DNA of 64,000 nucleotides from a virus (Duplodnaviria > Heunggongvirae > Uroviricota > Caudoviricetes), in IMG/VR virus record IMGVR_UViG_3300028800_000066, positions 8,207 to 72,206 of that record; one strand, given 5' to 3'. The notes under the pieces were generated by a model. That model worked only from the letters and a program-made list of their open reading frames with translations. It was not told the DNA's origin and ran no database searches. Below are positions 3,403 to 55,721 of the stretch, piece after piece. A program made the position numbers and the translations under genes. The first letter of the stretch is position 1; every line of letters starts with the position of its first letter.

Positions 3403-4068
3403 TTAAATTCCCGTCTTGAAGAAGTTTAAGAATGGATTTCCTGCTGTTGGAGCCTTGGTAACGTAAGCTACCTTGTCCTGACCAACGCGAGTTGTCAAAC
3501 GACCCTGCTGACCGTATGTATTATCAGCTACATAAAGGGCTGTACCTACTGTGTATGTGGAAACTAGAACGCCCGTAGACAATTCATATACGTCAGTGGA
3601 ATACTCACCTTCCTGCAACCAGATAGTGCATTTGCCAGAAGCCAATGTAGTATCATCACCAGCTTTACCTGGAATGATGTAGCTATACGAAACAGTGGTT
3701 GTTGTACCAGGAGCAAGTCCTGTAACTGCAATCGTGCCATTGACCTGGGAAGTCAAAGTGACCGTTCCTGATGGAGTAGCCAAGACGGCTGTGTTCGAAG
3801 CGGCAATAATATTAGCGTGAGCTAATGCTGTTGCGCCTGAAGCAACCACTTCGTTAACAGCCGTAGCTGAGAAAGAAGTTGTCTTGTTGTCATCAATGAT
3901 TCCGACTAAACCAGTTGTTCCAGATGTTGCCAACTGTACTTCTGGGTCGCCTGTGGTAGCGTTAGGAGTAATGAAGCCCATCATACCAGCTTCAGCAACT
4001 AATGCCGCACTTACATTGATGTCACCTTGAGGACCGGACAAATTGGTGTACAATAATTTAAATGACAT
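3403..4068 (-). CDS. putative virion structural protein (Thr/Gly/Ala-rich)
   Basis: Very strong RBS (AAAAGGGGGTGAAAAATATAAATG). Compositional bias typical of decoration or fibre proteins. Position just upstream of the capsid gene. Confidence 0.5.
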   Translation of the reverse strand: MSFKLLYTNLSGPQGDINVSAALVAEAGMMGFITPNATTGDPEVQLATSGTTGLVGIIDDNKTTSFSATAVNEVVASGATALAHANIIAASNTAVLATPSGTVTLTSQVNGTIAVTGLAPGTTTTVSYSYIIPGKAGDDTTLASGKCTIWLQEGEYSTDVYELSTGVLVSTYTVGTALYVADNTYGQQGRLTTRVGQDKVAYVTKAPTAGNPFLNFFKTGI

Positions 4069-7506: not shown

Positions 7507-8949
7507 TTATGCCTTCTTTTGTAAATAATATTTAGTTGCGGCTCTGCTCAATTCCTCTTTAAACTTCAATTCTTTGCTGTTCAATGTTTCATCTTTTTCT
7601 TTCAATCTCTTTCCAAGTGGACCCGCTGGACCTTCCTTGGCACTCTTCTTATAAGCCTCTTCTTCTAAATCTCTTGAGGTCTTACCATCGGTGCCTTGAA
7701 TCTCCAACTTTTCATTTGGATAAATCATTTCCTTATTCTTTTTTCCTTCTTCGAATCTATCATTAATATATCCGGTCATGTTGGGGTCGAATACTTGGTT
7801 GTTCAAATAAGCTGTAGTTGTCTTTCCTTTGTCTGAAGATACAATCAATTCAGTTGTATCAACATTCTTGTTCAACAACTCAGCTACAGCATTCTCAATG
7901 CTTTTAATTCCACCAGCAGAAATCTGGTCTGCGGCGGAATCTTCAAGATTCAAATGCCAAGCCTGTTTATCTTGAGAATATGCTGTCCATTCGTAGTCTT
8001 TCTCGTTTAGAGTTACGCTACCGTTAGCCTTGTAATCTTTCCAGGTCTTACGATATGTTAACTGCTTGATGTCAATTTTAATTCTTAGCATACTTGATAC
8101 CACCTTTACGTTATCATTCTTGCGATTTGCTCTAATGTCAGTTGCACATTCTGTTCCCTTACACTGAGCATCTTCATGCATCTTCAACAAGTTTTCTGGA
8201 ATTAATGAATCGGCTAATTTTGTTTGTCTATCTCCATCAACAGCCTTCTTCAATGAAGCTATTTTCTCAAGAACATTAGCTTCTCTGAAAGCTGGTACAC
8301 CGACCCAAGATAATTCAATAAACTCAAGGTCGTGGTTGACTTCGTGAATGGGCCATGCCCCAAACTTATGTTCGGAATTATTTGTGTACATGCTCATTTT
8401 CATACCCTTGTAACCAGCGATGTGGTCACAATATTCACGGTCTGTTCTTGCGATGTTTCCGCAAACAGAACATTCCGACCAACCAACACGAGTTCCCATT
8501 GAAACGGAATTTACCATTCCAGTTTCAATATCTCGGGCCAACTGTGGATGAGACTTTTTATCTACGGCGATTAAACACTCGACACATCCATCATCTTCGT
8601 TCAAGAAGGCATCAACGACCAATCCTCTGATTGCATTTAAATCATCTGATTTGTGGTCCAGGAAATTACCCTTACCAATAAATGATTGATAGGATGCTCT
8701 TAATTCTTTCATTGGGAATCCATCACCATTCTGGTTTGGTCCCCAATTTTCCAAGCTTCCAATAGCTCTTGTTCTGATATACATAAAATCATGTGAAAGA
8801 GCTAAACTCTTTTTGAACTTAGCTACTTTTGTTTTGAACTGAGCAATAGCAATCTTCGAACCTTCTGAAGAGCCAGTTTGAGATTTTACGGTATCAAAAT
8901 CTTCAGCCTGCTCCAAGAATTGTGCTGTGGCAAATTTAGTAAAAGACAT
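7507..8949 (-). CDS. hypothetical morphogenesis-block protein (480 aa)
   Basis: Large ORF between the scaffold-like and capsid-proximal genes. Function not recognisable. Confidence 0.5.
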   Translation of the reverse strand: MSFTKFATAQFLEQAEDFDTVKSQTGSSEGSKIAIAQFKTKVAKFKKSLALSHDFMYIRTRAIGSLENWGPNQNGDGFPMKELRASYQSFIGKGNFLDHKSDDLNAIRGLVVDAFLNEDDGCVECLIAVDKKSHPQLARDIETGMVNSVSMGTRVGWSECSVCGNIARTDREYCDHIAGYKGMKMSMYTNNSEHKFGAWPIHEVNHDLEFIELSWVGVPAFREANVLEKIASLKKAVDGDRQTKLADSLIPENLLKMHEDAQCKGTECATDIRANRKNDNVKVVSSMLRIKIDIKQLTYRKTWKDYKANGSVTLNEKDYEWTAYSQDKQAWHLNLEDSAADQISAGGIKSIENAVAELLNKNVDTTELIVSSDKGKTTTAYLNNQVFDPNMTGYINDRFEEGKKNKEMIYPNEKLEIQGTDGKTSRDLEEEAYKKSAKEGPAGPLGKRLKEKDETLNSKELKFKEELSRAATKYYLQKKA

Positions 8950-10924: not shown

Positions 10925-12574
10925 TTAAACTGCTGGTGCTTCTCCACCAGGGGCACCAGCGGCTTCGCCACCAATGTCACCAAGGGCGTCTAGACCTGTT
11001 GGTTCTGCGCCTTCAGCGCCTTCACCACCCATGTCTCCACCCATGTCTCCACCCATGTCTCCACCAAAATCTGGGCCACCGCCCTCTTCTGGAGCTTTCT
11101 TTTCTGGACCAGCCTTGCTTTGGTCCTTCTTAACGCTCTCTGAAACATTGATGTTATCAGGGCCAGTGTATGGAAGTTCCTGTTTGTAACCAATTTCCTT
11201 GAATATAGGAATTTCTCTGTTCATCTGGTCAACTTCTTCATCCAATGATAAATCAAGAGTCTTCAACAATGTTCCGACTGAAGCCTTACCTTCCTTGACC
11301 AAGTTTTCAATCGACTGCTGGTATTCACGATTATTCTTAAGATTAATCTTGTCCCAATTTACTTTAGGAATAATTAATTCAGTCTTGCCACCAACAATCT
11401 TTTCAAATCCCTGAAGTTTACAAATGGGTCTGAAAATTTTGATTTCAAGCCACTTCTCAATCAAAGTTCTGAATGATACATATCTCTGTTGTAATACTTC
11501 AAGGGCAACTGATGCATTAGCATAAGTTGGTCCCTCGGAGTGTGTGAAAGCCTTCGATGTGAACAAACCTGTCAACACACGGTCTTCAATTCTGTCCATC
11601 TCGCCGTCAAGAGGCAATATGACGCCTGTTGAGCCAACATATTGAACTTCAAGTCCTGGGTGAGTTACTAAAGTGAAATTTGGGTCATAAGTAGCTTGTT
11701 CTAACATCTCACGGAACGCCACAAGGTCATCGGATGTTGGACGATATGTACCGTCAGCAGTACCGACCTTGAAAATCTTAAGTGGTGTAATGTGGTTATC
11801 CGCGATTGAGAACTGTGCTTCACGGAGCTTGTCACGATACATCAAGTCCTTGAACACACGAGTTAATATAGAAGTACCACGAACATCATAAGGTGAGTTC
11901 TTACGAGCCAAATGCGATACGTATCTCTGACTTAGAGGAATATTCTTGCCAGCATAAACATAAGCAAGAACTTCTGGGTCAATCTGACCTCTAAGAGCTA
12001 CATCATCTGGATTTGTAGATGTGACCAAACGTTTTAATTCATCGTCTGGAATAAGTGAAATCATCGAAGTGGTAAGAACGTTTGATTTGACTTCGATATA
12101 ATCTGGATTCTGAATGATAATCTTTGACCATTCTCCTATGTTCAAATCCAATTCAGCATAAGGGAATACTTCACCGATAATGTTAAATTCTTTACCAATG
12201 TCATAGATTATAGATGAGAAATTCAACCTATCCAACATTTGATTAAAGAATTTTGTAATTGCTGGGTCGGATGACTTAACGCCGAAAGCTGAAAGTGGGT
12301 AAGTTGAGTGAAGGTCGAGAGCGTTACCAACCCAAGGGTCGGTTGCATAGTAATGTCTTGCCCAAGCATTAACTTCACGCCTGTCTCTCGGCAACATTAA
12401 ATTCGACTCTTCATAGAATGGCGAGAAGGGTCTCGGCGTAATTCTTACAACTTGTGAATTAGCCATACGAGTCATTCCACCTGTGGGAATCACTGAATTT
12501 CTATTCATAGAACCATTCTTGCTGATGGACCTTTGAATAGACCTACTGTTATCCATACTTATTCTGTTAAACAT
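10925..12574 (-). CDS. putative portal protein
   Basis: 549 aa, immediately downstream of the terminase region. C-terminal GGDMGGDMGGDMGG repeat tail. Assignment by position and size only. Confidence 0.5.
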   Translation of the reverse strand: MFNRISMDNSRSIQRSISKNGSMNRNSVIPTGGMTRMANSQVVRITPRPFSPFYEESNLMLPRDRREVNAWARHYYATDPWVGNALDLHSTYPLSAFGVKSSDPAITKFFNQMLDRLNFSSIIYDIGKEFNIIGEVFPYAELDLNIGEWSKIIIQNPDYIEVKSNVLTTSMISLIPDDELKRLVTSTNPDDVALRGQIDPEVLAYVYAGKNIPLSQRYVSHLARKNSPYDVRGTSILTRVFKDLMYRDKLREAQFSIADNHITPLKIFKVGTADGTYRPTSDDLVAFREMLEQATYDPNFTLVTHPGLEVQYVGSTGVILPLDGEMDRIEDRVLTGLFTSKAFTHSEGPTYANASVALEVLQQRYVSFRTLIEKWLEIKIFRPICKLQGFEKIVGGKTELIIPKVNWDKINLKNNREYQQSIENLVKEGKASVGTLLKTLDLSLDEEVDQMNREIPIFKEIGYKQELPYTGPDNINVSESVKKDQSKAGPEKKAPEEGGGPDFGGDMGGDMGGDMGGEGAEGAEPTGLDALGDIGGEAAGAPGGEAPAV

Positions 12575-13387: not shown

Positions 13388-15133
13388 TTATCTTCTAAAT
13401 ATATTAGGGAACATTGGAGAATTAGTTGGACCACCAATGCGTGTTGGTTTACCTGAAAAACTTGATGTTACTATTTTTGGCAATCCCAAGTTCATTGATT
13501 GACCACCAAAATTTGGACCAAGGCCAGTTTCACCAAGCTGAACAACTGAGGCGATGTATGCATAATTCAAGCTATGCAAGGCGTCATTAGGTTCTTCATT
13601 TTTAAATTTTTCATAGCTCTTTAATATGTTGCCAGTTCTTTCTGAATACTTTAATTCCATATTACAAATCTGTTTGATGAACCAACTGACTTTTTCAGGT
13701 TCTCTAAATGGAATTATTAAATTACCTCGTTTGATAACTTCGACCAAATCTTCAATGAAAGAATTTCTATCGACGGACAACTGCCAAGTGTCGTTATCAT
13801 ATTTAAGTTTATTTTTAATATTGGTGGAGTAGAAGCAAGATTTTACCTTATTCTGCCAAGTCTTTTGTAGCTTCTGGCACTGTGGTCCACCAAATCCAAT
13901 GTCGGCAACAACTGACGAACAATTATATAATCTAATCATGTCCGATATATACTGAACTTGTTTTTCCCAATCTGGATTCATCAGTCTTTCTGTATTTTCT
14001 AATGTATATTGACCAGTAGCGCGGTCCTTGCTTAGGATGGTCATTACGGTGTAAGCGCCCTTGTCTTTAATATCATTTCTTCCACCCCAGTCAAGACCCA
14101 TGAAGGTTTGTTTTGGTGGCTGAACTGATTTGGAAAGAGACATGTTTCTATAAGGCTCAGCGCAACGATTGGCAACCTCTTCTTCGGTGAGCGGTCTTCC
14201 GGCTCCGGAATAGAATTCTCCGAGCACCTCGTTTTTGAATCTTTCTTCAGAGTATTCAATCTGTCTAAGATTGATTTGCTCTCTAGTGATTCTTGGAGAA
14301 AGAAGCTGAGATACATGGAAGCCCACACGCTCTGTACCAAACTTAGATGGAATCCACTTTCCGTCCTTCATGATAATGCGTTTGTCGCTCATCTTCTTAC
14401 ACTTGGGACATTCGACCATGAATCCAGTCTTAAAGTTATCTAATGTAATCTGAAAATAATGTGAACAAGAAGGACACTTTAAATGGAAATATCTTCTGTC
14501 AGATGACATCCACAAAGTATCAAATTTGGAACCCGCTAACTTTGGTGTACCAAATGAGAAATCAATTTTATAGTCAGAAGCATCAAGACATGAATTGGTG
14601 TTAGCAATAGCGTCTGAAGTCCAGTCCTGGAATTCATCTCTGGAAAGCATGTCGGCTGGAATACCACGCAAGGCGTCAGCCTGTCCCCATGCTGAGTAAA
14701 TATAATAATGATTTTCGTTTGCGAATTCGATGGACGATACCGTATCTGAACCAGTTTTGTTTTTCAACTTCTCAAGTTTCGGTATTCTATCAATTTTTTG
14801 ACTTGTTCTAATCGACTGTTGTAAACGGTCTTTCGAATAACGTGAAGCCTGTTCGCTTCTTGGAAAAGCGTGAAGAACTGTAAAGTCAGAATAATTCTTC
14901 AAGAAATATAATGATATGTTGAGGGCTGTTTCGGTCATTTCAACCTGACGGCCCTTACATATAACAATTGGCTTATGTTCAATCATCGAACCTATGCAAG
15001 CATATCTATACAAATCGACTAAGTATTCTCTGCCAGTACCGATGATTTTAAAATTCTTACCCTTTACTGTTCTATGTGTTTCAATAAAATAGATGGGGTC
15101 CAAATTAAGTGCTGTATCCAGTAAACTTTCCAT
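13388..15133 (-). CDS. terminase large subunit
   Basis: Walker-A-like CKGRQVEMTET. Large size. Adjacent to portal. Start moved to Met16 (GGAAGGG RBS). Confidence 0.7.
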   Translation of the reverse strand: MESLLDTALNLDPIYFIETHRTVKGKNFKIIGTGREYLVDLYRYACIGSMIEHKPIVICKGRQVEMTETALNISLYFLKNYSDFTVLHAFPRSEQASRYSKDRLQQSIRTSQKIDRIPKLEKLKNKTGSDTVSSIEFANENHYYIYSAWGQADALRGIPADMLSRDEFQDWTSDAIANTNSCLDASDYKIDFSFGTPKLAGSKFDTLWMSSDRRYFHLKCPSCSHYFQITLDNFKTGFMVECPKCKKMSDKRIIMKDGKWIPSKFGTERVGFHVSQLLSPRITREQINLRQIEYSEERFKNEVLGEFYSGAGRPLTEEEVANRCAEPYRNMSLSKSVQPPKQTFMGLDWGGRNDIKDKGAYTVMTILSKDRATGQYTLENTERLMNPDWEKQVQYISDMIRLYNCSSVVADIGFGGPQCQKLQKTWQNKVKSCFYSTNIKNKLKYDNDTWQLSVDRNSFIEDLVEVIKRGNLIIPFREPEKVSWFIKQICNMELKYSERTGNILKSYEKFKNEEPNDALHSLNYAYIASVVQLGETGLGPNFGGQSMNLGLPKIVTSSFSGKPTRIGGPTNSPMFPNIFRR

Positions 15134-15411
15134 ATACCCTTCCAAATCTATACTGCGCCACACTATAGTTAGTAGCATGACGCAGTATAATTTATTCTGT
15201 CATACTCATTATAACAAATCAAATGTCAATTTGTTATATTATTTTGACATTAATTATTGATGCTTGTGGAACTGTAAAGCTCTCATTGCGGCATGGGCAT
15301 CACCACAAGAATCGTGATGACTTAAAACCTTTCCGCTATGACTATCTAAAACCACCCATTTTCCGCCGCGATTCTTAATAAATTCAGTCTCGTGGCATGG
15401 ACCATCAGCTT

Positions 15412-30995: not shown

Positions 30996-31010
30996 TATTT
31001 ACCTTAATTG

Positions 31011-31359
31011 TGGAGGCGGTGGGAATCGAACCCACGTCCAAACAACTTTCCAAATTCAATCTACGTGTGTGTTCGGTTTTGCAGTCCGACAACTGTATTC
31101 GTTTTGTCCGTTTCGTTTTCATCTTAGCAGGGCAGAGTTATAACTGTCAGACTAATAAACTCTTACACTGAGCATCCTAAAGCGGCTCTGAAATTCACAC
31201 CTATAGGAGTCGGTGGTCAGAGTAGTCGCTATTAAGCGGCTAGTAGTTCCATTTCTTCGGCATTTCAATTTGTCTGCAAAGGTTTTTAGAGGGCCTTCAC
31301 GACAACTCCCTCACACGCATGAATGTTGTACTGTTATCTGTCGAAACCAAGTCGCCCCC
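31011..31359 (-). ncRNA. ssrA: tmRNA (SsrA)
   Basis: 5' GGGGGCGACUUGGUUUCGACAG. 3' tRNA-like end GGACGUGGGUUCGAUUCCCACCGCCUCCA. Internal tag reading frame ...GCC GAA GAA AUG GAA CUA CUA GCC GCU UAA UAG (AEEMELLAA). Confidence 0.8.
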
Positions 31360-31387
31360 AAGAGGGTATTACCTTTCTTTCACTTCG

Positions 31388-31461
31388 AGCAAGCGGTGGG
31401 ATTCGAACCCACGAATAACGGTTTTGCAGACCGTCCCCTTAGACCACTTGGGTACGCTTGC
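31388..31461 (-). tRNA. tRNA-Cys (GCA)
   Basis: Cloverleaf with GGTTCGAATCC T-arm (read from rc). Anticodon loop CTGCAAA. Confidence 0.8.
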
Positions 31462-37397: not shown

Positions 37398-37420
37398 TTA
37401 TCACCAGAAGAATGTTGTGT

Positions 37421-37493
37421 GCCGTGGGCGGGACTTGAACCCGCAAATTATGCATTCTGAGTGCATTGCCTATGCCATTCGGCTACCACGGCA
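37421..37493 (-). tRNA. tRNA with anticodon CAG (Leu codon CUG) but type-I short variable arm
   Basis: Clean cloverleaf gccgtgg|ta|gcc-gaatggcata-ggc|a|atgca-CTCAGAA-tgcat|aattt|gcggg-ttcaagt-cccgc|ccacggc|a. A73 discriminator. Confidence 0.6.
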
Positions 37494-39875: not shown

Positions 39876-39889
39876 ATTGAAAATTTCTG

Positions 39890-39969
39890 AGCTATCTGAG
39901 AGAATCGAACTCTCGCTGGTTTCCCGCCCGATTACAAATCGGGTGCCATTCCACTCGGCTCAAGATAGC
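39890..39969 (-). tRNA. type-II (long variable arm) tRNA with anticodon loop TTTGTAA (TGT by canonical numbering), identity uncertain
   Basis: gctatct|tg|agcc..ggca|cccga-TTTGTAA-tcggg|cgggaaaccagc|gagag-ttcgatt-ctctc|agatagc|t. Confidence 0.5.
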
Positions 39970-41470: not shown

Positions 41471-42325
41471 TTATTCAAGATGTTCAACTACACTTCTCAA
41501 GATTTTAGCGGTGGTCTGTCTCAAAGTTCTGTGATGTTTAACCACGCCATAACCATGATACTCTTTATTCATTTCAATCAAAAGCTTGTGAGCGGCTTCC
41601 CTATCTGGACCATGAGGAAGTTGAGTCTTTGTATAAAGTTCATCACAAAGAGCTTCGAGCCTTTTTGCTTCTTCTAGAAAACGTTCCTTGCTCCATTCAC
41701 CCTTTTTGACGGTTAGAACAAGCTGGTTTTCTTTTAGAGGAAGCGTGATTTTGCCAGTTGACAAAAGCTCATTAGCCTCAAGATACAATCTAAGAGCGTG
41801 AGAAGCCATCTTAGTATCATATCCAAACTTCTGAATCAATTCTTGTCTTCCACTTCCATTATCTTCGCCACGCTGTAGTCTCTGGACCTGAGTGTGGCTA
41901 TAACCTTTAAAGCTGTGATAGCTTTTCTTGGACAAGAAGATTTCTTTGTTATCAAAAAGCTTCTGCCCTAGAGGATGTACGTATAACCTGCAATTCTCCG
42001 GAACAAATAATGTTTCTAAAGTATTCGGATTGTTATTTAGAAGCAATTCCATAAACTTTGGAAGTGCATACAATGTGCAATCCATATCAGCGGAAGTATT
42101 CTTCTTTCCAGAACCCGTATCGTTGGTTCTGAATTCTACCTGTTCGATGTTCTTCAATCCCAAAAGATACTCTTCGTCAGGCATGAATACACCAACAAAG
42201 TCCTGGTCGCTCTTGCCTGGGATATTGGTTCCATACATGACCGACCCAACACGTAGGAATAGCAAGCAGTTTTCGACTGCCATCTTCCTCTCGACTGTGT
42301 TTTGTAGAAGTTCTGTATGTTTCAT
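41471..42325 (-). CDS. Pol-beta superfamily nucleotidyltransferase
   Basis: GSVMYGTNIPGKSDQDFVGVF (GS...[DE]xD nucleotidyltransferase signature). Driven by consensus promoter P1. Confidence 0.55.
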   Translation of the reverse strand: MKHTELLQNTVERKMAVENCLLFLRVGSVMYGTNIPGKSDQDFVGVFMPDEEYLLGLKNIEQVEFRTNDTGSGKKNTSADMDCTLYALPKFMELLLNNNPNTLETLFVPENCRLYVHPLGQKLFDNKEIFLSKKSYHSFKGYSHTQVQRLQRGEDNGSGRQELIQKFGYDTKMASHALRLYLEANELLSTGKITLPLKENQLVLTVKKGEWSKERFLEEAKRLEALCDELYTKTQLPHGPDREAAHKLLIEMNKEYHGYGVVKHHRTLRQTTAKILRSVVEHLE

Positions 42326-46252: not shown

Positions 46253-46361
46253 CTTTTCGAAATTGCATTTTCATAGCAAAATTCTATTTTAATACCTAGA
46301 GTTCGAAATCTAATTATTAGGAGATTACAGCATGAAATGCATAAAAAGAGCAGTAACTAAG

Positions 46362-46444
46362 TGGGTTAGGAGAGACTCGAACTCTCAAGCCCTTTCGGGC
46401 ACTAGCTTCTTAGACTAGCGTGTATGCCATTCCACCACTAACCC
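46362..46444 (-). tRNA. tRNA-Leu-like type II with anticodon loop CTAAGAA (AAG)
   Basis: Paralog of tRNA-Leu(TAG) at 37969 (same D, variable and T arms). Position 34 is A instead of T. Confidence 0.55.
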
Positions 46445-46457
46445 ATATTTAAATCTG

Positions 46458-46541
46458 TGGCCCAAGTGGGACTCGAACCCACACTCCCCGAAAGGAACCA
46501 GATTTTAAGTCTAGCGCGTCTACCAATTACGCCATCGGGCC
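46458..46541 (-). tRNA. tRNA-Leu (TAA), second copy
   Basis: Loop CTTAAAA. Variable arm ttcctttcggggagt. Confidence 0.7.
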
Positions 46542-46554
46542 ATTTATAAACTTG

Positions 46555-46642
46555 TGACCAAGGAGAGATTCGAACTCTCACGCCCATTACAGGCAACGGT
46601 ATCTAAAGCCGTCATGTCTACCTATTTTTTCATCACTCGGCC
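46555..46642 (-). tRNA. type-II tRNA, probable Leu (TAG) with oversized D-loop
   Basis: Acceptor ggccgag/cttggtc (2 G-U). AC stem acggc/accgt with loop TTTAGAT. Variable arm tgcctgtaatgggcgt. Fold less certain than the others. Confidence 0.45.
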
Positions 46643-46664
46643 ATGCTTGTTGCTTTTTATATTG

Positions 46665-46748
46665 TGGGCCAGGAGGGACTTGAACCCCCACTCCCCGAAG
46701 GGAACCACATTTTGAGTGTGGCGTGTCTGCCAGTTCCACCACTAGCCC
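46665..46748 (-). tRNA. tRNA-Leu (CAA), type II
   Basis: Loop CTCAAAA. Variable arm ttcccttcggggagt. Confidence 0.75.
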
Positions 46749-46761
46749 GTTATTACTTTCG

Positions 46762-46837
46762 TGACCTCCCTCGGATTCGAACCGAGACGTAAACTAGGTT
46801 TGAGCTAGTTCCCTCTACCAAATTGGGGTAGGAGGCC
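46762..46837 (-). tRNA. tRNA with anticodon CAA (Leu UUG) but type-I short variable arm
   Basis: ggcctcc|ta|ccc..ggg|a|actag-CTCAAAC-ctagt|ttacgt|ctcgg-ttcgaat-ccgag|ggaggtc|a. A73. Confidence 0.55.
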
Positions 46838-47359
46838 GTTAACGGTTTAATCCGGTTACATCACCGTAAGTTTTATAAATCACCGGAACTTATCCCAGTC
46901 ATTAATTCGTCCACTCGTCAGACTGGGAATTGAGAGTGAGACTATTCGGCTTAGTATTTTCGTCTAATTAAATACAAATTAATTGACGAACTAGCCAAAC
47001 TTTTTATCTTTTTTATACTGCCACCCACGGTCTGCGCCTTACGGAACTATCCTTTCGGACGTTTCGCAAACTACGTGGGTTAATTAATCGGCGGGATTTG
47101 GTTATCTCTGGTAGTGGAATACGGTCCACTAAGCACAGTTATCGGTCCTGCCCCTTGCGGGTTCTCGCCAAACTTAAATCCAAGTGTGGTGCGAACCTGT
47201 CTGCCATATCCGCTCACCTATTTTCGGGTTCTATCCCTTACCGCAGACTCGACTTGGATTTAATGCGCTTTCAGCCTTGCAGTTTTGTCTCTCGACAATA
47301 CCTCGGTCCATTCCATTTCGTAGATGAAATGAGGTTTCGACTTAGTGCTGAAACTTTAA
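46838..47359 (-). ncRNA. about 520-nt non-coding, highly structured element embedded in a tRNA operon (candidate large ncRNA)
   Basis: No ORF of 60 aa or more on either strand. Flanked directly by tRNAs. Long-range complements, e.g. UUAAAUCCAAGU...ACUUGGAUUUAA, GUCUGC...GCAGAC, GGUAAGGG, and two AGAACCCG motifs. Confidence 0.45.
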
Positions 47360-47436
47360 TGGTGGTTCCGGAGGGATTCGAACCCCCTACCCTTCGGGTA
47401 GAAACCGAATGCTCTATCCAGATGAGCTACGGAACC
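47360..47436 (-). tRNA. tRNA-Arg (TCT), second copy, CCA encoded
   Basis: Loop TTTCTAC. Confidence 0.7.
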
Positions 47437-47533
47437 ATATTTTTATCTAGGTCACATTGACTTGTGTTAACCTTGGAAAAGATGGAAGCCCAACCCTATC
47501 GACAATCGGTAACTTCTCCAAGACCTAGATTCG

Positions 47534-47562: not shown

Positions 47563-47595
47563 AAATTTGTCAAGCCCTTTTATCGTTTCATAATG

Positions 47596-47669
47596 TGAAC
47601 CAGATGGGACTCGAACCCATATAACTCCCTTACGTTATCCCGCTTCGGAGGCGAGAACGGTACTGGTCC
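47596..47669 (-). pseudogene. tRNA-like element (74 nt) without a D-arm; possible tRNA pseudogene or tRNA mimic
   Basis: Good acceptor ggaccag/ctggttc and T-arm atggg-ttcgagt-cccat. The internal region folds as ctcgc-CTCCGAA-gcggg (anticodon-like CCG) enclosed by cgtt/aacg, so there is no room for a D-arm. Confidence 0.35.
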
Positions 47670-47670
47670 A

Positions 47671-47826
47671 TCACTTTTTCTTTCTAGCTTCTTTCAATCT
47701 CTTTTTTCTATCTTCGATTGCTTCTTGTAATTTCTTAGCGAATTCATCATTTCTTGGTCTGTTTCTGGATTCTGGTCTTACATTGATTTCACTTGGAATT
47801 GGTTTAATTGGCTCAATTTTATCCAT
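47671..47826 (-). CDS. small Lys/Arg-rich ORF (51 aa)
   Basis: MDKIEPIKPIPSEINVRPESRNRPRNDEFAKKLQEAIEDRKKRLKEARKKK. Immediately downstream of the kinase gene. Confidence 0.35.
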   Translation of the reverse strand: MDKIEPIKPIPSEINVRPESRNRPRNDEFAKKLQEAIEDRKKRLKEARKKK

Positions 47827-48420
47827 TTAATTAGTACCAGTCCTTAAATTATTTAGCCACTCTTGTAGCTTTTTATCAATCACTTCTTCATCGCCATCAT
47901 TAACTAGGACAAGATTGCAACGACTAATCTCTTCATGAGTTATAAAAACGGAATCAACCTGGGCTTCTGCAACTTCTCTTGATATATTTCTTCCATGAAT
48001 CAGTCTTTCTAACCTAACTTCTCTAGGTGCAGTCACTAGAAGGATGTTATCAAACAACTTCTCAGCACCAGATTCGAACAATACAGGTATATCAAAGAAT
48101 AACATTTTATTTTCGACTGCCTTATGTCGTTCAATTACTTTTCTGATTTCATCCAAAATTCCAGGGAACATCAGGTCGTTAAGTTTCTTCAATTCCGTTC
48201 TGTTATTAAAAACTAAGATAGCTAACTTTTTCGTATCAAGACCGCCATCTTCTTTAAGATATTCTTTCCCAAACAAGTCAATAATTCTGGAAACAAACTT
48301 ATGTCGAATATTTCTAGCCAAATCATCTACATCATAAACACAATAACCATTTTGTCTTAAGCTTTGTGATATTTTAGATTTTCCAGAACCACTAGGTCCA
48401 GTAATCCCGATGACTTTCAT
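47827..48420 (-). CDS. coaE: P-loop kinase, dephospho-CoA kinase (CoaE)-like
   Basis: MKVIGITGPSGSGKS Walker A. DVD and LN..HP motifs align with CoaE. Could equally be a polynucleotide or nucleotide kinase of the same fold. Confidence 0.6.
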   Translation of the reverse strand: MKVIGITGPSGSGKSKISQSLRQNGYCVYDVDDLARNIRHKFVSRIIDLFGKEYLKEDGGLDTKKLAILVFNNRTELKKLNDLMFPGILDEIRKVIERHKAVENKMLFFDIPVLFESGAEKLFDNILLVTAPREVRLERLIHGRNISREVAEAQVDSVFITHEEISRCNLVLVNDGDEEVIDKKLQEWLNNLRTGTN

Positions 48421-50169: not shown

Positions 50170-50556
50170 TTACCAATCCAATGTTCCAGCATTAACACAG
50201 GCTACACCAAAAACAGCGCCAACAGCTACATCCAATAACTCTGCCTTGAAATGAGTTTTGTCGTTTTTATGTAAAGCTTCCATCATTTCACGATGTTCTT
50301 CATCTACTACACCAGCGATTTCGTGAGTTGAAGCAAATGTTCCATAACCTTTTTGTTTAAGTCTACGATTAAGTTCTAATCTGAATTCCATAACAGCTTG
50401 TTCAATTTGTTCTTGCGTAATTTCCAGTCTAGCATTAGCCATTTGTTCTCCACGCGCAGGAACTTCCATGTCCGAATCCAGTCCCGCCATAAGGGCATCA
50501 ATTTCGCTCTGACTTAATATATCGTCCACTCTATGCTCTGAGAAGATTTCGCTCAA
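50170..50556 (-). CDS. MazG-like all-alpha NTP pyrophosphohydrolase (putative)
   Basis: ASTHEIAGVVDEEHREMMEAL...ELLDVAVGAVF acidic helix pattern. Confidence 0.45.
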   Translation of the reverse strand: MSEIFSEHRVDDILSQSEIDALMAGLDSDMEVPARGEQMANARLEITQEQIEQAVMEFRLELNRRLKQKGYGTFASTHEIAGVVDEEHREMMEALHKNDKTHFKAELLDVAVGAVFGVACVNAGTLDW

Positions 50557-51550
50557 CGGCTTGACCGTGCATCCAATGTTTCACGGTCTGGATGTGATTC
50601 TTTCTCACATATTTAGCCGCAGACTTTCTAAAATCACCGTATGAAAACTTGTCAGCAATTCTGATTACATATCCTTCTTTGCTCTGCCAATTTTCTTTGT
50701 TGTACAAAGCTTTAATTTTTGTCTCATCATAGATTCCATCATACAAAACTGGAACGCTTTGGATGTTCAAAAGATTAAACCAAGAAGCCGTATCATCCCA
50801 ATCCAGGCATTCGTTCTTTTCATTCCAAACCGAGAATCCCATGAAATAGGTGGGGAGATTATCGTAGCCAATTGAGTGTTTGGCCCAAAGATTCTCACCG
50901 CAGACTCTCCAACCTTCGGGGATATCGTTAGCGATTGCCGCCCAAAAGTTCTTTACCCAATTTCTAGAAACATGAGTGTCACTGTTTATACTTCTTGCAT
51001 GGATGTGGTCACGATACATTGTCGTGTTTTCTCCATCCATTTTTTCTGTAACAATAACTCTTTTACCTTCAAAACTTTTCATGTTCTCAATCATGCGGTC
51101 ATCATCGTTCATGTTTTCCGACCAAGGAACATGGTATGTTCTAGGATATTTTACATAACTGGTAAACTGTCCGAGAACATCAGCTAAAATCTTTTGGACG
51201 CTCAAATCGTAAAACAACTCACCTTTAAGTCTTTGACCATTGGGAAGAATAATGTTTCCCCATTTATCGTAAGTCTGGTCGTGATAGAAATGTTCTGGAA
51301 GAACTGGTTTAGTAATTCCGCACTTCTCACGAACTTGTTCCACAGAAATATTGGTCTTTTCACATTCAATGTGATGTTCTTCGCAAACCGAAGCGCCATT
51401 GTTTAGAAAATAACCGCCATTTCCCCAAATCCTACGTTCAATTATATGGTGTGCATCTGCCGCTGGTTCTCCACAAAATACGCACTTATGACCATCTCTT
51501 TTGAAGACGCCCTCACGGAATTCATCACGAGTGAGCAATTTGGATTCCAT
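50531..51550 (-). CDS. HNH nuclease fused to ATP-dependent RNA ligase-like nucleotidyltransferase
   Basis: N-terminal CVFCGEPAADAHHII...CEEHH. Ligase motif I TEKMDGEN (KxDGxN), motif IV EGYVIR, motif V AAKYVRK. Confidence 0.55.
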   Translation of the reverse strand: MESKLLTRDEFREGVFKRDGHKCVFCGEPAADAHHIIERRIWGNGGYFLNNGASVCEEHHIECEKTNISVEQVREKCGITKPVLPEHFYHDQTYDKWGNIILPNGQRLKGELFYDLSVQKILADVLGQFTSYVKYPRTYHVPWSENMNDDDRMIENMKSFEGKRVIVTEKMDGENTTMYRDHIHARSINSDTHVSRNWVKNFWAAIANDIPEGWRVCGENLWAKHSIGYDNLPTYFMGFSVWNEKNECLDWDDTASWFNLLNIQSVPVLYDGIYDETKIKALYNKENWQSKEGYVIRIADKFSYGDFRKSAAKYVRKNHIQTVKHWMHGQAVERNLLRA

Positions 51551-54017: not shown

Positions 54018-55721
54018 TTAACCCTTGATGAAGTCACTCATCACGGCTGGGGCAGATGAATCGAATCCTACCACGTCTAACATTCCAGCATCGTTAGGGT
54101 CTGCAATCGTGAAATCATTCGTAACCATACCAACCACAACTGACTTGGCATTGTTACTAGACTGCTTGCGATATTCTGCAAGAGCCTGATGTGGGTGAAT
54201 TCTTCCAGCATAAGTCTCGTTATCGGTGTAGACAAAGAAAGCATCTACATCTAACTTATTCTGCTTTGCATAAACCATCGGCAAAGAGCAATCAGTTCCA
54301 CGGAAAGGAAGATTATTGATGACTGAGATTACATCATCCAATCTCTTCTTTCCAGAAATGTTCAAGTCAATGAACTCTGTCGAGAATCCCTTGATATAGA
54401 CGTTCTTCTCAACCTTTGCAGTAACCATTGCCATAGCCGCGCTTACCACTCTTGGCGTAAGACCTGGAATACCAGAAATTGAACCGCCGTCCATTGAACC
54501 AGACACGTCCAAGGCCAACATGATGTTCTTTCCAGTTGGCTCAACATTATCAAATGCTGTGTAGAAAGCAGAATCCAATGCGTCCACAACTGTCTGGACC
54601 GGAGTCCAGGAATTTCCACCACGCTCACCGTGACCCTGCTGATAAACCTTCAAGGCCGACAATAACTGAATCGGATGCACTCTCGCCTTCTTCAAAGCCT
54701 CTACATTAGCAAGCTTTTCAGCGACAAGCTTTGAACCCTGTGAAAGCGGTGCAATCAATCCAACTCTTGTCATTGTTGCAATATTACGAATCATTGCAGT
54801 CAATGGCATGTGCGGAAGTAATGCATCCCACACTTCAATGGTGTTAAGTAACTCTGTAGGAACAGCTTCACGAGGAAGTTCGTGTTCTCTAATCAATCCA
54901 ACAATTTCAGAAGCAGTCGTTGCCCTCTGAGCCTGTTCGAAAGCATTAATCATCGGGTGGATATTGACGATAAGCTTTCCTTCATTGTCATAGTGCGACT
55001 TTACCCATGACTGAATCTGCTCGTGCTTCTCGGAATACTTCACCTTTGCCGAATCGTTCTTGGCAGAGACAGGGGCATCCTTACCAGCCTTATACTTATT
55101 CCACGCAACCCACTGATAGATATCATTACGTGCGGCATCAGCGGTCTTCAAGTGAGCAAGACGCAACGCATCACGATGTTCAAAACCTTCACGATTACGA
55201 TACTTAATAACCTGTAATGCAAGGCCATCCAAGTTCTTCTCGTTATACCAACGCTGAACTGCCTTACGCAATCCAGTACCAGTTCCCTTGCCAATGGTGT
55301 CCGCAATCGACAAGAACTGGAACAAATGTGTGGCGATTCTGCATACCTTTGAAAGGTTCTGATATGCATACGCACGAGTAGCCGCATCACCATGCTTTAC
55401 GACAAGCGCAAGAGCAAACACAGCGGGGTCATTCTTTGGAGCGCGACCATTGTGAGAAATTTCCACAATAGTATCAACAGTCTTGCGACCATTTTCCTTC
55501 ACGCACTCCAAGATGCACTTCGCACTGTCCTGTGTCATCTTGTGCTCGGATGCATAATACGAGCCACCCTCGTTTCCAAGAATCAAGAAACGGTTTAAAC
55601 GGGTCCAGTTGTCTACCTTGAATGTAAAGCCACCCGCGCTGTTTGGAACCTGATTGCTTCCGAATACCTTCTCGGACTGGGGTGTAACCTTAGTTGAAAC
55701 GTGCGAAGCATAGTTTGACAT
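54018..55721 (-). CDS. vWA-domain protein with Ro60/TROVE-like architecture (Rsr-like, inferred)
   Basis: C-terminal vWA MIDAS LALDVSGSMDG...T...D. About 400-aa helical N-terminal module. 567 aa matches the Ro60 size and domain order. GGAAGAGGAG RBS. Own consensus promoter. Confidence 0.5.
   Translation of the reverse strand: MSNYASHVSTKVTPQSEKVFGSNQVPNSAGGFTFKVDNWTRLNRFLILGNEGGSYYASEHKMTQDSAKCILECVKENGRKTVDTIVEISHNGRAPKNDPAVFALALVVKHGDAATRAYAYQNLSKVCRIATHLFQFLSIADTIGKGTGTGLRKAVQRWYNEKNLDGLALQVIKYRNREGFEHRDALRLAHLKTADAARNDIYQWVAWNKYKAGKDAPVSAKNDSAKVKYSEKHEQIQSWVKSHYDNEGKLIVNIHPMINAFEQAQRATTASEIVGLIREHELPREAVPTELLNTIEVWDALLPHMPLTAMIRNIATMTRVGLIAPLSQGSKLVAEKLANVEALKKARVHPIQLLSALKVYQQGHGERGGNSWTPVQTVVDALDSAFYTAFDNVEPTGKNIMLALDVSGSMDGGSISGIPGLTPRVVSAAMAMVTAKVEKNVYIKGFSTEFIDLNISGKKRLDDVISVINNLPFRGTDCSLPMVYAKQNKLDVDAFFVYTDNETYAGRIHPHQALAEYRKQSSNNAKSVVVGMVTNDFTIADPNDAGMLDVVGFDSSAPAVMSDFIKG

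Follow-up and report, generated by a model that had tools for sequence, protein, structure and literature searches.

Can a tRNA that bears a leucine anticodon but lacks the long variable arm of bacterial leucine tRNAs be a genuine tRNA-Leu? The question is raised by a 76-nt gene on the minus strand of IMG/VR virus record IMGVR_UViG_3300028800_000066, in a stretch of 64,000 nt (positions 8,207 to 72,206 of that record) that is referred to here as the window and whose own numbering is used throughout. An earlier note on this DNA had described a type I tRNA with the anticodon CAA, placed directly beside a canonical type II tRNA-Leu(CAA), and had taken it for a mismatch between body and anticodon. 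We conclude that the gene very probably encodes a functional short-arm (type I) tRNA-Leu, which would be expressed, processed and leucylated by its host's leucyl-tRNA synthetase (LeuRS). The grounds are the gene and its structure, its membership of a family, the restriction of that family to leucine anticodons, and its conservation, with compensated changes, in a related phage. Short-arm tRNA-Leu is an already known type; the gene adds a phage-array example to it and is no anomaly.

Structure of the short tRNA-Leu(CAA)

The gene, its parts and its immediate neighbour are listed below. L-numbers (L373, L131, L026 and others) are labels of loci compared in this analysis.

46762-46837, minus strand: type I (short variable loop) tRNA-Leu(CAA), tRNA positions 1-73, found by ARAGORN, Rfam and the family model R1
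46800-46802, minus strand: anticodon CAA (TTG on the plus strand)
46811-46828, minus strand: D arm of the short gene
46787-46792, minus strand: variable loop UUACGU, 6 nt, without a stem
46762, minus strand: A73 of the short gene
46749-46761, minus strand: spacer of 13 nt that separates the CAA tRNAs, beginning with C74; CCA is not encoded
46664-46748, minus strand: canonical type II tRNA-Leu(CAA) with a 15-nt variable arm (ARAGORN; Rfam, 52.6 bits; L373 orthologue at 576-660)

Two structurally different tRNAs for one codon do therefore stand back to back, as had been noticed, the long one being found by both ARAGORN and Rfam. The gap between them is 13 nt (from A73 at 46762 to G1 at 46748) and not 14 nt. 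Moreover, both genes lie on the minus strand, so that the short one, described earlier as downstream of the long one, is upstream of it in the direction of transcription.

ARAGORN called a tRNA-Leu(caa) at 46761-46837 on the minus strand. The Rfam tRNA model (RF00005), with the region searched alone, matched 46762-46837 over model positions 1-71 of 71 (44.3 bits, E = 4e-8). A gathering run of Rfam over 34 kb omitted the gene; this omission is a loss to the speed filter, because 44.3 bits is well above the gathering score of 29 bits. By element, the RNA reads GGCCUCC UA CCCC AAUUUGGUAG A GGG A ACUAG CUCAAAC CUAGU UUACGU CUCGG UUCGAAU CCGAG GGAGGUC A. In the cloverleaf drawn by ARAGORN, the acceptor stem measures 7 bp and includes G2·U71, the anticodon stem measures 5 bp (or, optionally, 6 bp) and the T stem 5 bp, and there is no variable stem; the minimum-free-energy fold gave the acceptor, anticodon and T helices (z = -2.2). 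With a leucine anticodon and a variable loop of 6 nt, the tRNA is of type I (variable region of at most 7 nt without a stem) and not of canonical type II (stemmed arm of more than 10 nt).

The D stem, which encloses the loop AAUUUGGUAG, has 3 bp (CCC-C13 / A22-GGG), with C13·A22 unpaired. This is a Leu-type D arm, in which the stem has 3 bp, 13·22 is unpaired and three loop bases come after G18G19, and the D loop AAUUUGGUAGA is in the register of the loop AAUUGGUAGA of the long tRNA-Leu(UAA). U8, A14, A15, G18G19, U33, A37, U48, U54U55C56, A58 and A73 are all present. The bacterial leucine identity set described in PMC6614811 and PMC2377443 (A73, U8-A14, A15-U48, G18G19 with U55C56, and U54-A58) is thus complete at the level of nucleotides. 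Among these elements, the A15-U48 Levitt pair is cited as an identity element of E. coli tRNA-Leu (PMC6614811). In Aquifex aeolicus, deletion of the variable arm chiefly lowers affinity, the anticodon is no determinant, and deletion of U48 abolishes charging (PMC2377443). C74, a strong determinant for the Streptomyces LeuRS (PMC6614811), follows each of the 41 tRNAs called by ARAGORN in the window, of which 8 encode the full CCA.

Bacterial LeuRS ignores the anticodon and recognises A73 together with the tertiary core (U8-A14, A15-U48, G18G19 with U55C56 and the Leu-type D arm), the long arm chiefly supplying binding energy. As the LeuRS elements are kept and only the arm is lost, the tRNA could still be leucylated. 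The short CAA tRNA would then read UUG, which is the commonest leucine codon in the open reading frames (ORFs) of the window (341 of 1,074 leucine codons, 32%). With other tRNA-Leu genes of a large array, some short and some long, it would be interchangeable; most anticodons of this array are represented by two divergent genes.

Further tRNA-Leu or tRNA-Leu-like genes of the window, to which the short CAA gene can be compared, are these:

46555-46642, minus strand: type II tRNA-Leu-like gene with the anticodon loop UUUAGAU (UAG); Rfam, 37.1 bits; without an ARAGORN call
46457-46541, minus strand: type II tRNA-Leu(UAA), D arm GCGU-AAUUGGUAGA-CGC, with the loop register of the short CAA tRNA
46361-46444, minus strand: type II tRNA-Leu(AAG), in place of which L373 has a type I tRNA-Leu(AAG)
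37419-37492, minus strand: second short-arm tRNA-Leu, anticodon CAG, D arm GCC-G-AAUGGCAUA-GGC

The last of these shows that the companion short tRNA-Leu placed earlier near 37421..37493 is real. A73 and U8 are common to the five long tRNA-Leu of the window, with variable arms of 15-17 nt, as are a D stem of 3 bp with 13·22 unpaired and a D loop that is either AAUUGGUAGA or AAUGGCAKA. The short CAA tRNA has the D-arm architecture and the loop of these long genes, plus one extra U, and the D loop of the short Leu(CAG) is identical to that of the long Leu(AAG). A body that combines A73 and A15-U48 with a D stem of 3 bp, unpaired 13·22 and a D loop in the Leu register is no mismatch to a leucine anticodon; nor is it isolated, a large family of short-arm tRNA-Leu being found in Streptomyces, Felix O1, phage arrays and Bifidobacteriaceae.

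Two other identities were considered and rejected. Initiator tRNAs have C1·A72 and an anticodon stem with three consecutive G-C pairs; an initiator for UUG starts was ruled out by G1-C72, in place of C1·A72, and by an anticodon stem without such a series. A tRNA derived from tRNA-Trp was ruled out by the D-arm register and the discriminator base.

A family of short-arm tRNA-Leu genes in phages

We searched IMG/VR with a DNA pattern that fixed three loops (D, anticodon as CUCAAA, and T) at type I spacing and did not demand pairing. At least 120 viral loci matched, and ARAGORN called a short tRNA-Leu(CAA) at all 120 matches listed; among these, the same loci also carried short tRNAs with the anticodons UAG, UAA, GAG, AAG and CAG.

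Among 101 unique sequences of the family, A73 was present in 88, A15 in 93 and U48 in 87. U was found at position 73 in 12 sequences, mostly those whose T loop was parsed one base out of register, and this U73 is attributed to parsing. Positions 13·22 were C·A, G·A or A·A in 98 sequences and formed a Watson-Crick pair in only 2, and the variable loop had 5 nt in 74 sequences and 6 nt in 24. In an alignment of 55 sequences that included the short CAA gene, 97.2% of cells were paired under the cloverleaf with a 3-bp D stem, a value somewhat inflated by the pre-filtering of the sequences with a tRNA finder. The covariation score was 1.09, whereas shuffles gave 0.23 and slid controls no more than 0.20, with both-sided changes at 19 of the 20 pairs.

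In a second scan, the anticodon was left free and the body CCCAATTGGTAGAGG, T33 and the T loop were fixed. Among the matches listed, 147 out of 149 carried leucine anticodons, of all six kinds and from both codon boxes: CAA (75), UAG (55), UAA (11), AAG (2), GAG (2) and CAG (2). A body spread over both leucine boxes and found almost nowhere else is expected of a tRNA whose synthetase is blind to the anticodon, with the genetic code intact. The two remaining matches (L293 and L296, from IMG/VR), the only ones with a non-leucine anticodon among the 149 listed, carry GUG with C73 on the short-Leu D arm CCCC AAUUGGUAGA GGG; these are probably real tRNA-His that share this D arm.

D-arm architecture was also parsed in 1,251 tRNAs from phage loci, 1,010 of them of type I. 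The Leu-type D arm was found in 34 out of 40 long tRNA-Leu and, outside the selection made by the search pattern, in 32 out of 58 short tRNAs with a leucine anticodon. It also occurred in 11 type I tRNAs of four other isotypes (Asn, Glu, Gln and Phe), and 859 of the 1,010 type I tRNAs did not have it. This architecture is thus enriched in leucine tRNAs. The motif AAUUGGUAGA itself is present in the D loop of 24 out of 71 tRNA-Trp of phage arrays, where a D stem of 4 bp shifts it by one base toward the anticodon stem; the tRNA-Trp of the window has G73.

Some arrays have no other leucine tRNA. L026 and L108 each hold 25 tRNAs for all 20 amino acids, and their sole tRNA-Leu are short (CAA, AAG and UAG), while their tRNA-Ser and tRNA-Tyr are long-armed; L014, L039, L067 and L113 resemble them. 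Mixed arrays combine a short CAA with long UAA and UAG genes, with no long CAA within the fetched stretches.

For a covariance model, R1, we took 46 short tRNA-Leu that lie outside the window, 38 of them of phage loci and 8 cellular. Applied to the window, in which it matched 41 minus-strand tRNAs, R1 placed the short Leu(CAG) first (37420-37492, 71.5 bits) and the short CAA tRNA second (67.5 bits). The gain of R1 over the generic Rfam tRNA model was +23 bits for the short CAA tRNA, the largest among the tRNAs compared, whereas typical type I tRNAs scored lower with R1 than with the generic model. Details of the gene recur elsewhere as well: the variable loop UUACGU in L248, UUAUGU in L023 and a 7-nt variant in L175, and the anticodon loop CUCAAAC in other arrays. 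A single metagenome scan with the D arm of the short CAA gene returned only L136, an unrelated array. In the literature searched, we found no description of short-arm tRNA-Leu in phages.

Conservation of the CAA pair in a related phage

Seven further contigs represent the same phage at 99.9% identity, with an identical short tRNA wherever it is covered; copies so nearly identical are uninformative on selection. A more distant relative was reached through the RlaP nucleotidyltransferase gene, which lies 4.4 kb from the short CAA gene and whose protein is 82% identical in L373. L373 and L131 come from the same sample and abut, and are therefore taken as one related phage. L131 breaks off within an Arg(UCU) gene, some 520 nt upstream of where the short CAA gene stands in the window.

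The gene order of L373 is that of the window: Arg(UCU), short Leu(CAA) (129-204), long Leu(CAA) (576-660) and further Leu genes. Seven mismatches and one gap separate the short CAA gene of the window from that of L373 (89.7% identity). In the acceptor stem, 4:69 changes from C-G to U-A and 5:68 from U-A to C-G; in the loops, L373 has one D-loop U fewer and three changes in the variable loop. The anticodon arm, the T arm, G2·U71 and A73 are unchanged. All four stem substitutions are thus compensated, and the anticodon is still CAA. The long CAA genes likewise differ only by compensated changes, in the acceptor stem, the anticodon stem and the variable arm. The relative therefore keeps both copies, which was the check proposed earlier, and it does not have the changed anticodon by which a drifting pseudogene was to be recognised. 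Judged from these two sequences, compensated stems with a kept anticodon are the opposite of a drifting pseudogene.

L373 also differs from the window in the type of its other Leu genes. It has a short Leu(AAG) (2102-2176) where the only AAG gene of the window is long, and an additional short Leu(UAA) (3742-3816) beside a long one. Such replacement of one form by the other within a lineage argues that the short and long forms are functionally equivalent.

Short-arm tRNA-Leu in cells and in other phages

Almost all bacterial tRNA-Leu are of type II, according to Fan et al. 2019 (PMC6614811). In S. coelicolor, a natural type I tRNA-Leu(CAA) stands beside four type II isoacceptors and one LeuRS charges both types; human mitochondrial LeuRS also charges this type I tRNA, and the leucine-specific domain of LeuRS decides type I charging (PMC6614811). 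Compared by description only, the Streptomyces tRNA is like that of the phage in its CAA anticodon and its short, stemless variable loop. A shared identity element is U8-A14, and charging is affected by variable-loop length (PMC6614811). The Streptomyces loop has 5 nt (ACAGC, with C48), whereas that of the phage has 6 nt (UUACGU, with U48); moreover, the short form is the sole CAA isoacceptor in Streptomyces, whereas the phage has a short and a long one.

Canonical bacterial type II tRNA-Leu shares with the short CAA tRNA A73, the 3-bp D stem, the unpaired 13·22, the D-loop register, A15-U48 and a leucine anticodon, which LeuRS does not read (PMC2377443). It differs by a variable stem-loop of 10-17 nt, absent from the short tRNA. 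In addition, the 5' D stem is C-rich in the short CAA tRNA (CCC/GGG, with U8 A9), whereas the long Leu genes of the window have GYG/CRC, with U8 G9. Animal mitochondrial tRNA-Leu, which is of type I, also has a short variable loop and A73 (PMC6614811); it is served by a dedicated mitochondrial LeuRS, its core is often degenerate, and the likeness drawn here is one of features.

The CAA pattern matched at least 120 loci in a species-level genome collection; at 106 of the 120 genome loci listed, no other tRNA lay within 8 kb of the match. A singleton chromosomal short CAA gene was thus found in at least 100 genomes of Bifidobacteriaceae and other actinobacteria. Among the 80 titles listed, 69 were Bifidobacteriaceae (Bifidobacterium, Gardnerella, Alloscardovia, Aeriscardovia and others), and the remainder were mostly Mobiluncus, Senegalimassilia, Streptosporangiaceae and other Actinomycetes. 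Matches on contigs of cyanobacterial and proteobacterial metagenome-assembled genomes were tRNA arrays. The body of these actinobacterial tRNAs (U8 A9, NCC-C13 ... A22-GGN, loop AAUUGGUAGA, anticodon loop CUCAAAA/C, a short variable loop whose last base is U48, and A73) follows the same plan as that of the phage gene, and R1 includes such sequences. The cellular genes are chromosomal singletons with a 5-nt variable loop, GCAGU, and a C31·U39 mismatch, conserved in the chromosomal tRNA-Leu(CAA) of Bifidobacteriaceae (L169-L288), whereas the phage gene lies in an array, with G31-C39, an additional U in the D loop and a variable loop of 6 nt. The literature searched held no description of the short-arm chromosomal tRNA-Leu(CAA) of Bifidobacteriaceae.

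Short tRNA-Leu genes are also annotated in cultured phages of other lineages and hosts than the phage of the window. Felix O1 (AF320576) has three annotated tRNA-Leu of 78-79 nt with short arms, for CUA, UUG and UUA, and Microbacterium phage Big4 (ON637770) has several. These genes lie in phage tRNA clusters and are 78-80% identical to the short CAA gene over most of its length (blastn). Within the 5 kb of Felix O1 that were inspected, each of the three annotated Leu genes is of the short form, and none has a long partner with its anticodon.

Evidence against a functional tRNA-Leu and alternative explanations

Several observations weigh against a functional tRNA-Leu. E. coli LeuRS fails in vitro on the Streptomyces type I tRNA-Leu(CAA) (PMC6614811), so that charging depends on the enzyme of the host. 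The D loop has one extra U, before G18, which is common to 3 of the 101 family members, and the 6-nt variable loop (24 out of 101) and G2·U71 depart slightly from the family norm. The R1 score exceeds that of the best non-leucine tRNA, Lys(CUU) (64.7 bits), by only 3 bits. Sequence hidden Markov models (HMMs) of the core, built per isotype on phage tRNA cores, gave the short CAA tRNA no clear isotype (best Pro, 13 bits). This crude method was not discriminating, the long-Leu HMM scoring best for only 39 of 98 short tRNA-Leu, and it was set aside because the acceptor-stem sequence dominates its scores. Finally, the comparison of orthologues rests on one moderately divergent relative (L373, about 80% identical).

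The alternative that survives best adds a selective reason to a functional tRNA-Leu, and no different mechanism. The short gene might be a spare copy, either because its body escapes a host factor that hits or restricts type II tRNA-Leu (a nuclease specific for the anticodon or the body, or some other toxin directed at tRNAs) or because the phage meets hosts with differing LeuRS preference. This seems unlikely to us. It would agree with the doubling seen throughout the array: between 31387 and 62119, 12 anticodons are represented by two or three divergent genes (51-81% identity), and four same-anticodon pairs (Thr UGU, Leu CAA, Asp GUC and Lys UUU) have spacers of only 12-16 nt. The retention of both CAA genes in L373 and the swaps between relatives (AAG long in the window and short in L373, and the extra short UAA) would fit as well, as would the tmRNA, Ro60-like, RNA ligase and RlaP genes of the array, if they are read as RNA damage control. 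However, doubling is not special to CAA, the CAA pair being one case of an array-wide feature, and dosage for the commonest leucine codon accounts for the pair equally well. Moreover, the short CAA gene stands alone in most other arrays, where it is not a spare, and the nuclease or toxin is hypothetical here.

Decay is much harder to sustain, and we consider it very improbable that the gene is a relic, persisting in the array, of a tRNA from which the long arm or the original anticodon has been lost. Its Rfam score is below that of most tRNAs of the window, it departs from its family in G2·U71, the extra D-loop base and the 6-nt variable loop, and it is redundant with the adjoining type II CAA gene. 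On the other hand, all four stems are intact, the conserved tertiary and invariant nucleotides are all present, and the L373 orthologue has the same anticodon and only compensated stem changes. In addition, the loop UUAYGU and CUCAAAC recur in other loci (L023 and L248, with the 7-nt variant in L175), and family-wide covariation and the restriction to leucine anticodons oppose drift.

That a type I tRNA of another identity (e.g. Phe or Trp) took the anticodon CAA and inserts its amino acid at UUG is scarcely credible: the frequent AAUUGGUAGA D loop of phage-array tRNA-Trp and the fact that CAA and GAA (Phe) differ at position 34 only would favour it, but GGUAGA lies one base nearer the anticodon stem in tRNA-Trp and other type I tRNAs with a 4-bp D stem, whereas the D arm of the short CAA tRNA, with its 3-bp stem and unpaired 13·22, is in the Leu register, outside that of Trp and Phe, A73 is unlike Trp, position 3:70 is C-G and not G3·U70, there is no long arm, the body occurs with all six leucine anticodons, the CUN box included, far from those of Phe and Trp, and complete arrays have it without any other tRNA-Leu.

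With a functional short-arm tRNA-Leu as the preferred reading, the gene can carry the annotation tRNA-Leu(CAA) in preference to pseudogene or recoding tRNA, and the genetic code of the phage need not be doubted on its account. The 2019 Streptomyces study presented bacterial type I tRNA-Leu as a rarity; here, it is common in phage arrays, with all six leucine anticodons, and is the form of the chromosomal tRNA-Leu(CAA) in Bifidobacteriaceae and other Actinobacteria. For research on tRNAs and synthetases, there are thus numerous natural variants with which to find out by which LeuRS enzymes arm-less tRNA-Leu is accepted. A bolder proposal is that phage arrays systematically adopt arm-less tRNA-Leu as a viral strategy, freeing leucine decoding from host factors that act on type II tRNAs; we hold it to be improbable. 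If it were true, then in E. coli, a host of Felix O1-like phages, their three short Leu tRNAs would have evolved acceptance or would use another charging route, and a kept pair of short and long CAA genes would represent two functionally distinct tRNAs and not dosage.

The tRNA array, its neighbouring genes and the host

The window is part of an uncultured phage with a GC content of about 39%, and every ORF is on the minus strand. A gpA-type large terminase is encoded at 13388-15178, and a very large tRNA array spans 31 kb to 64 kb. To the ARAGORN set, Rfam adds one tRNA (46555-46642) and a tmRNA:

31008-31359, minus strand: tmRNA (Rfam, 116.7 bits)

Within the array, a tmRNA, an RlaP nucleotidyltransferase, a dephospho-CoA kinase, an RNA ligase and a Ro60/TROVE protein are interspersed, all on the minus strand (31008-31359, 41471-42325, 47827-48420, 50531-51550 and 54018-55721). 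The combination of Ro60, RNA ligase and tRNAs was observed again in L131 and in the gene table of the 59-kb contig that bears the L134 RNA ligase. No Y RNA was called by Rfam near the Ro60 gene. Among the RNA-ligase relatives L133, L134 and 32 IMG/VR loci, no syntenic Leu cluster was found.

Cultured phages gave no match to the region by DNA, nor to a 562-aa ORF by tblastn. The neighbouring HHH_8 protein had no relative in IMG/VR and no homologue but itself among 5.8 billion proteins. Hints to the host are weak, three pointing toward an actinobacterium and one away. The short CAA body is a type found on actinobacterial chromosomes and gives a weak clue to the host; proteins resembling the Ro60-like product of 54018-55721 are, among cultured phages, almost confined to actinobacteriophages; and one close homologue of the RNA ligase is labelled Candidatus Nanopelagicales. 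In contrast, the terminase resembles those of Firmicutes phages (32% identity). The tmRNA tag called by ARAGORN at lowered stringency looks wrong; read manually, the tag ends in ELLAA, which is not diagnostic of a host.

The 520 nt upstream of the short CAA gene (46838-47359) hold no minus-strand ORF of at least 120 aa, and Rfam gave no convincing match in 46838-47000. A scan of 46300-47500 for promoters and terminators found nothing on the minus strand. The corresponding gap in L373 has only about 93 nt.

The Leu-like gene at 46555-46642, between Leu(UAA) and Leu(CAA), has a C31·A39 mismatch, an enlarged D loop and, as in the short CAA tRNA, G2·U71. It matches a Leu(tag) gene of L373 (1656-1747) at 77%.

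The array as a whole resembles two interleaved tRNA sets, and several of its members have unusual variable regions. A tRNA-Ile(UAU) of 90-93 nt has a variable arm of about 22 nt and thus joins a type II body to an isotype of type I, the reverse of what is seen in the short Leu. It recurs across related and unrelated phage arrays:

44699-44788, minus strand, of the window: long-arm tRNA-Ile(UAU)
3157-3249 of L373: long-arm tRNA-Ile(UAU)
139-231 of L134: long-arm tRNA-Ile(UAU)
4203-4294 of L009: long-arm tRNA-Ile(UAU)

In an Arg(CCG) gene of 86 nt (47595-47680, minus strand; Rfam, 32.2 bits), the variable arm measures 18 nt and the acceptor stem has two mismatches, a Thr(UGU) gene of 81 nt (39889-39969, minus strand) has a 12-nt variable region, and L373 has an Arg(UCU) gene of 91 nt (2320-2410). 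Lastly, the contig L374, from a related phage, carries at 11333-11405 a 73-nt tRNA with the anticodon UCA, which reads UGA, on the body and U73 of the window tRNA-Cys(GCA) (31387-31461, 81.8% identity). By its body and anticodon, this tRNA is possibly a UGA-to-Cys suppressor.

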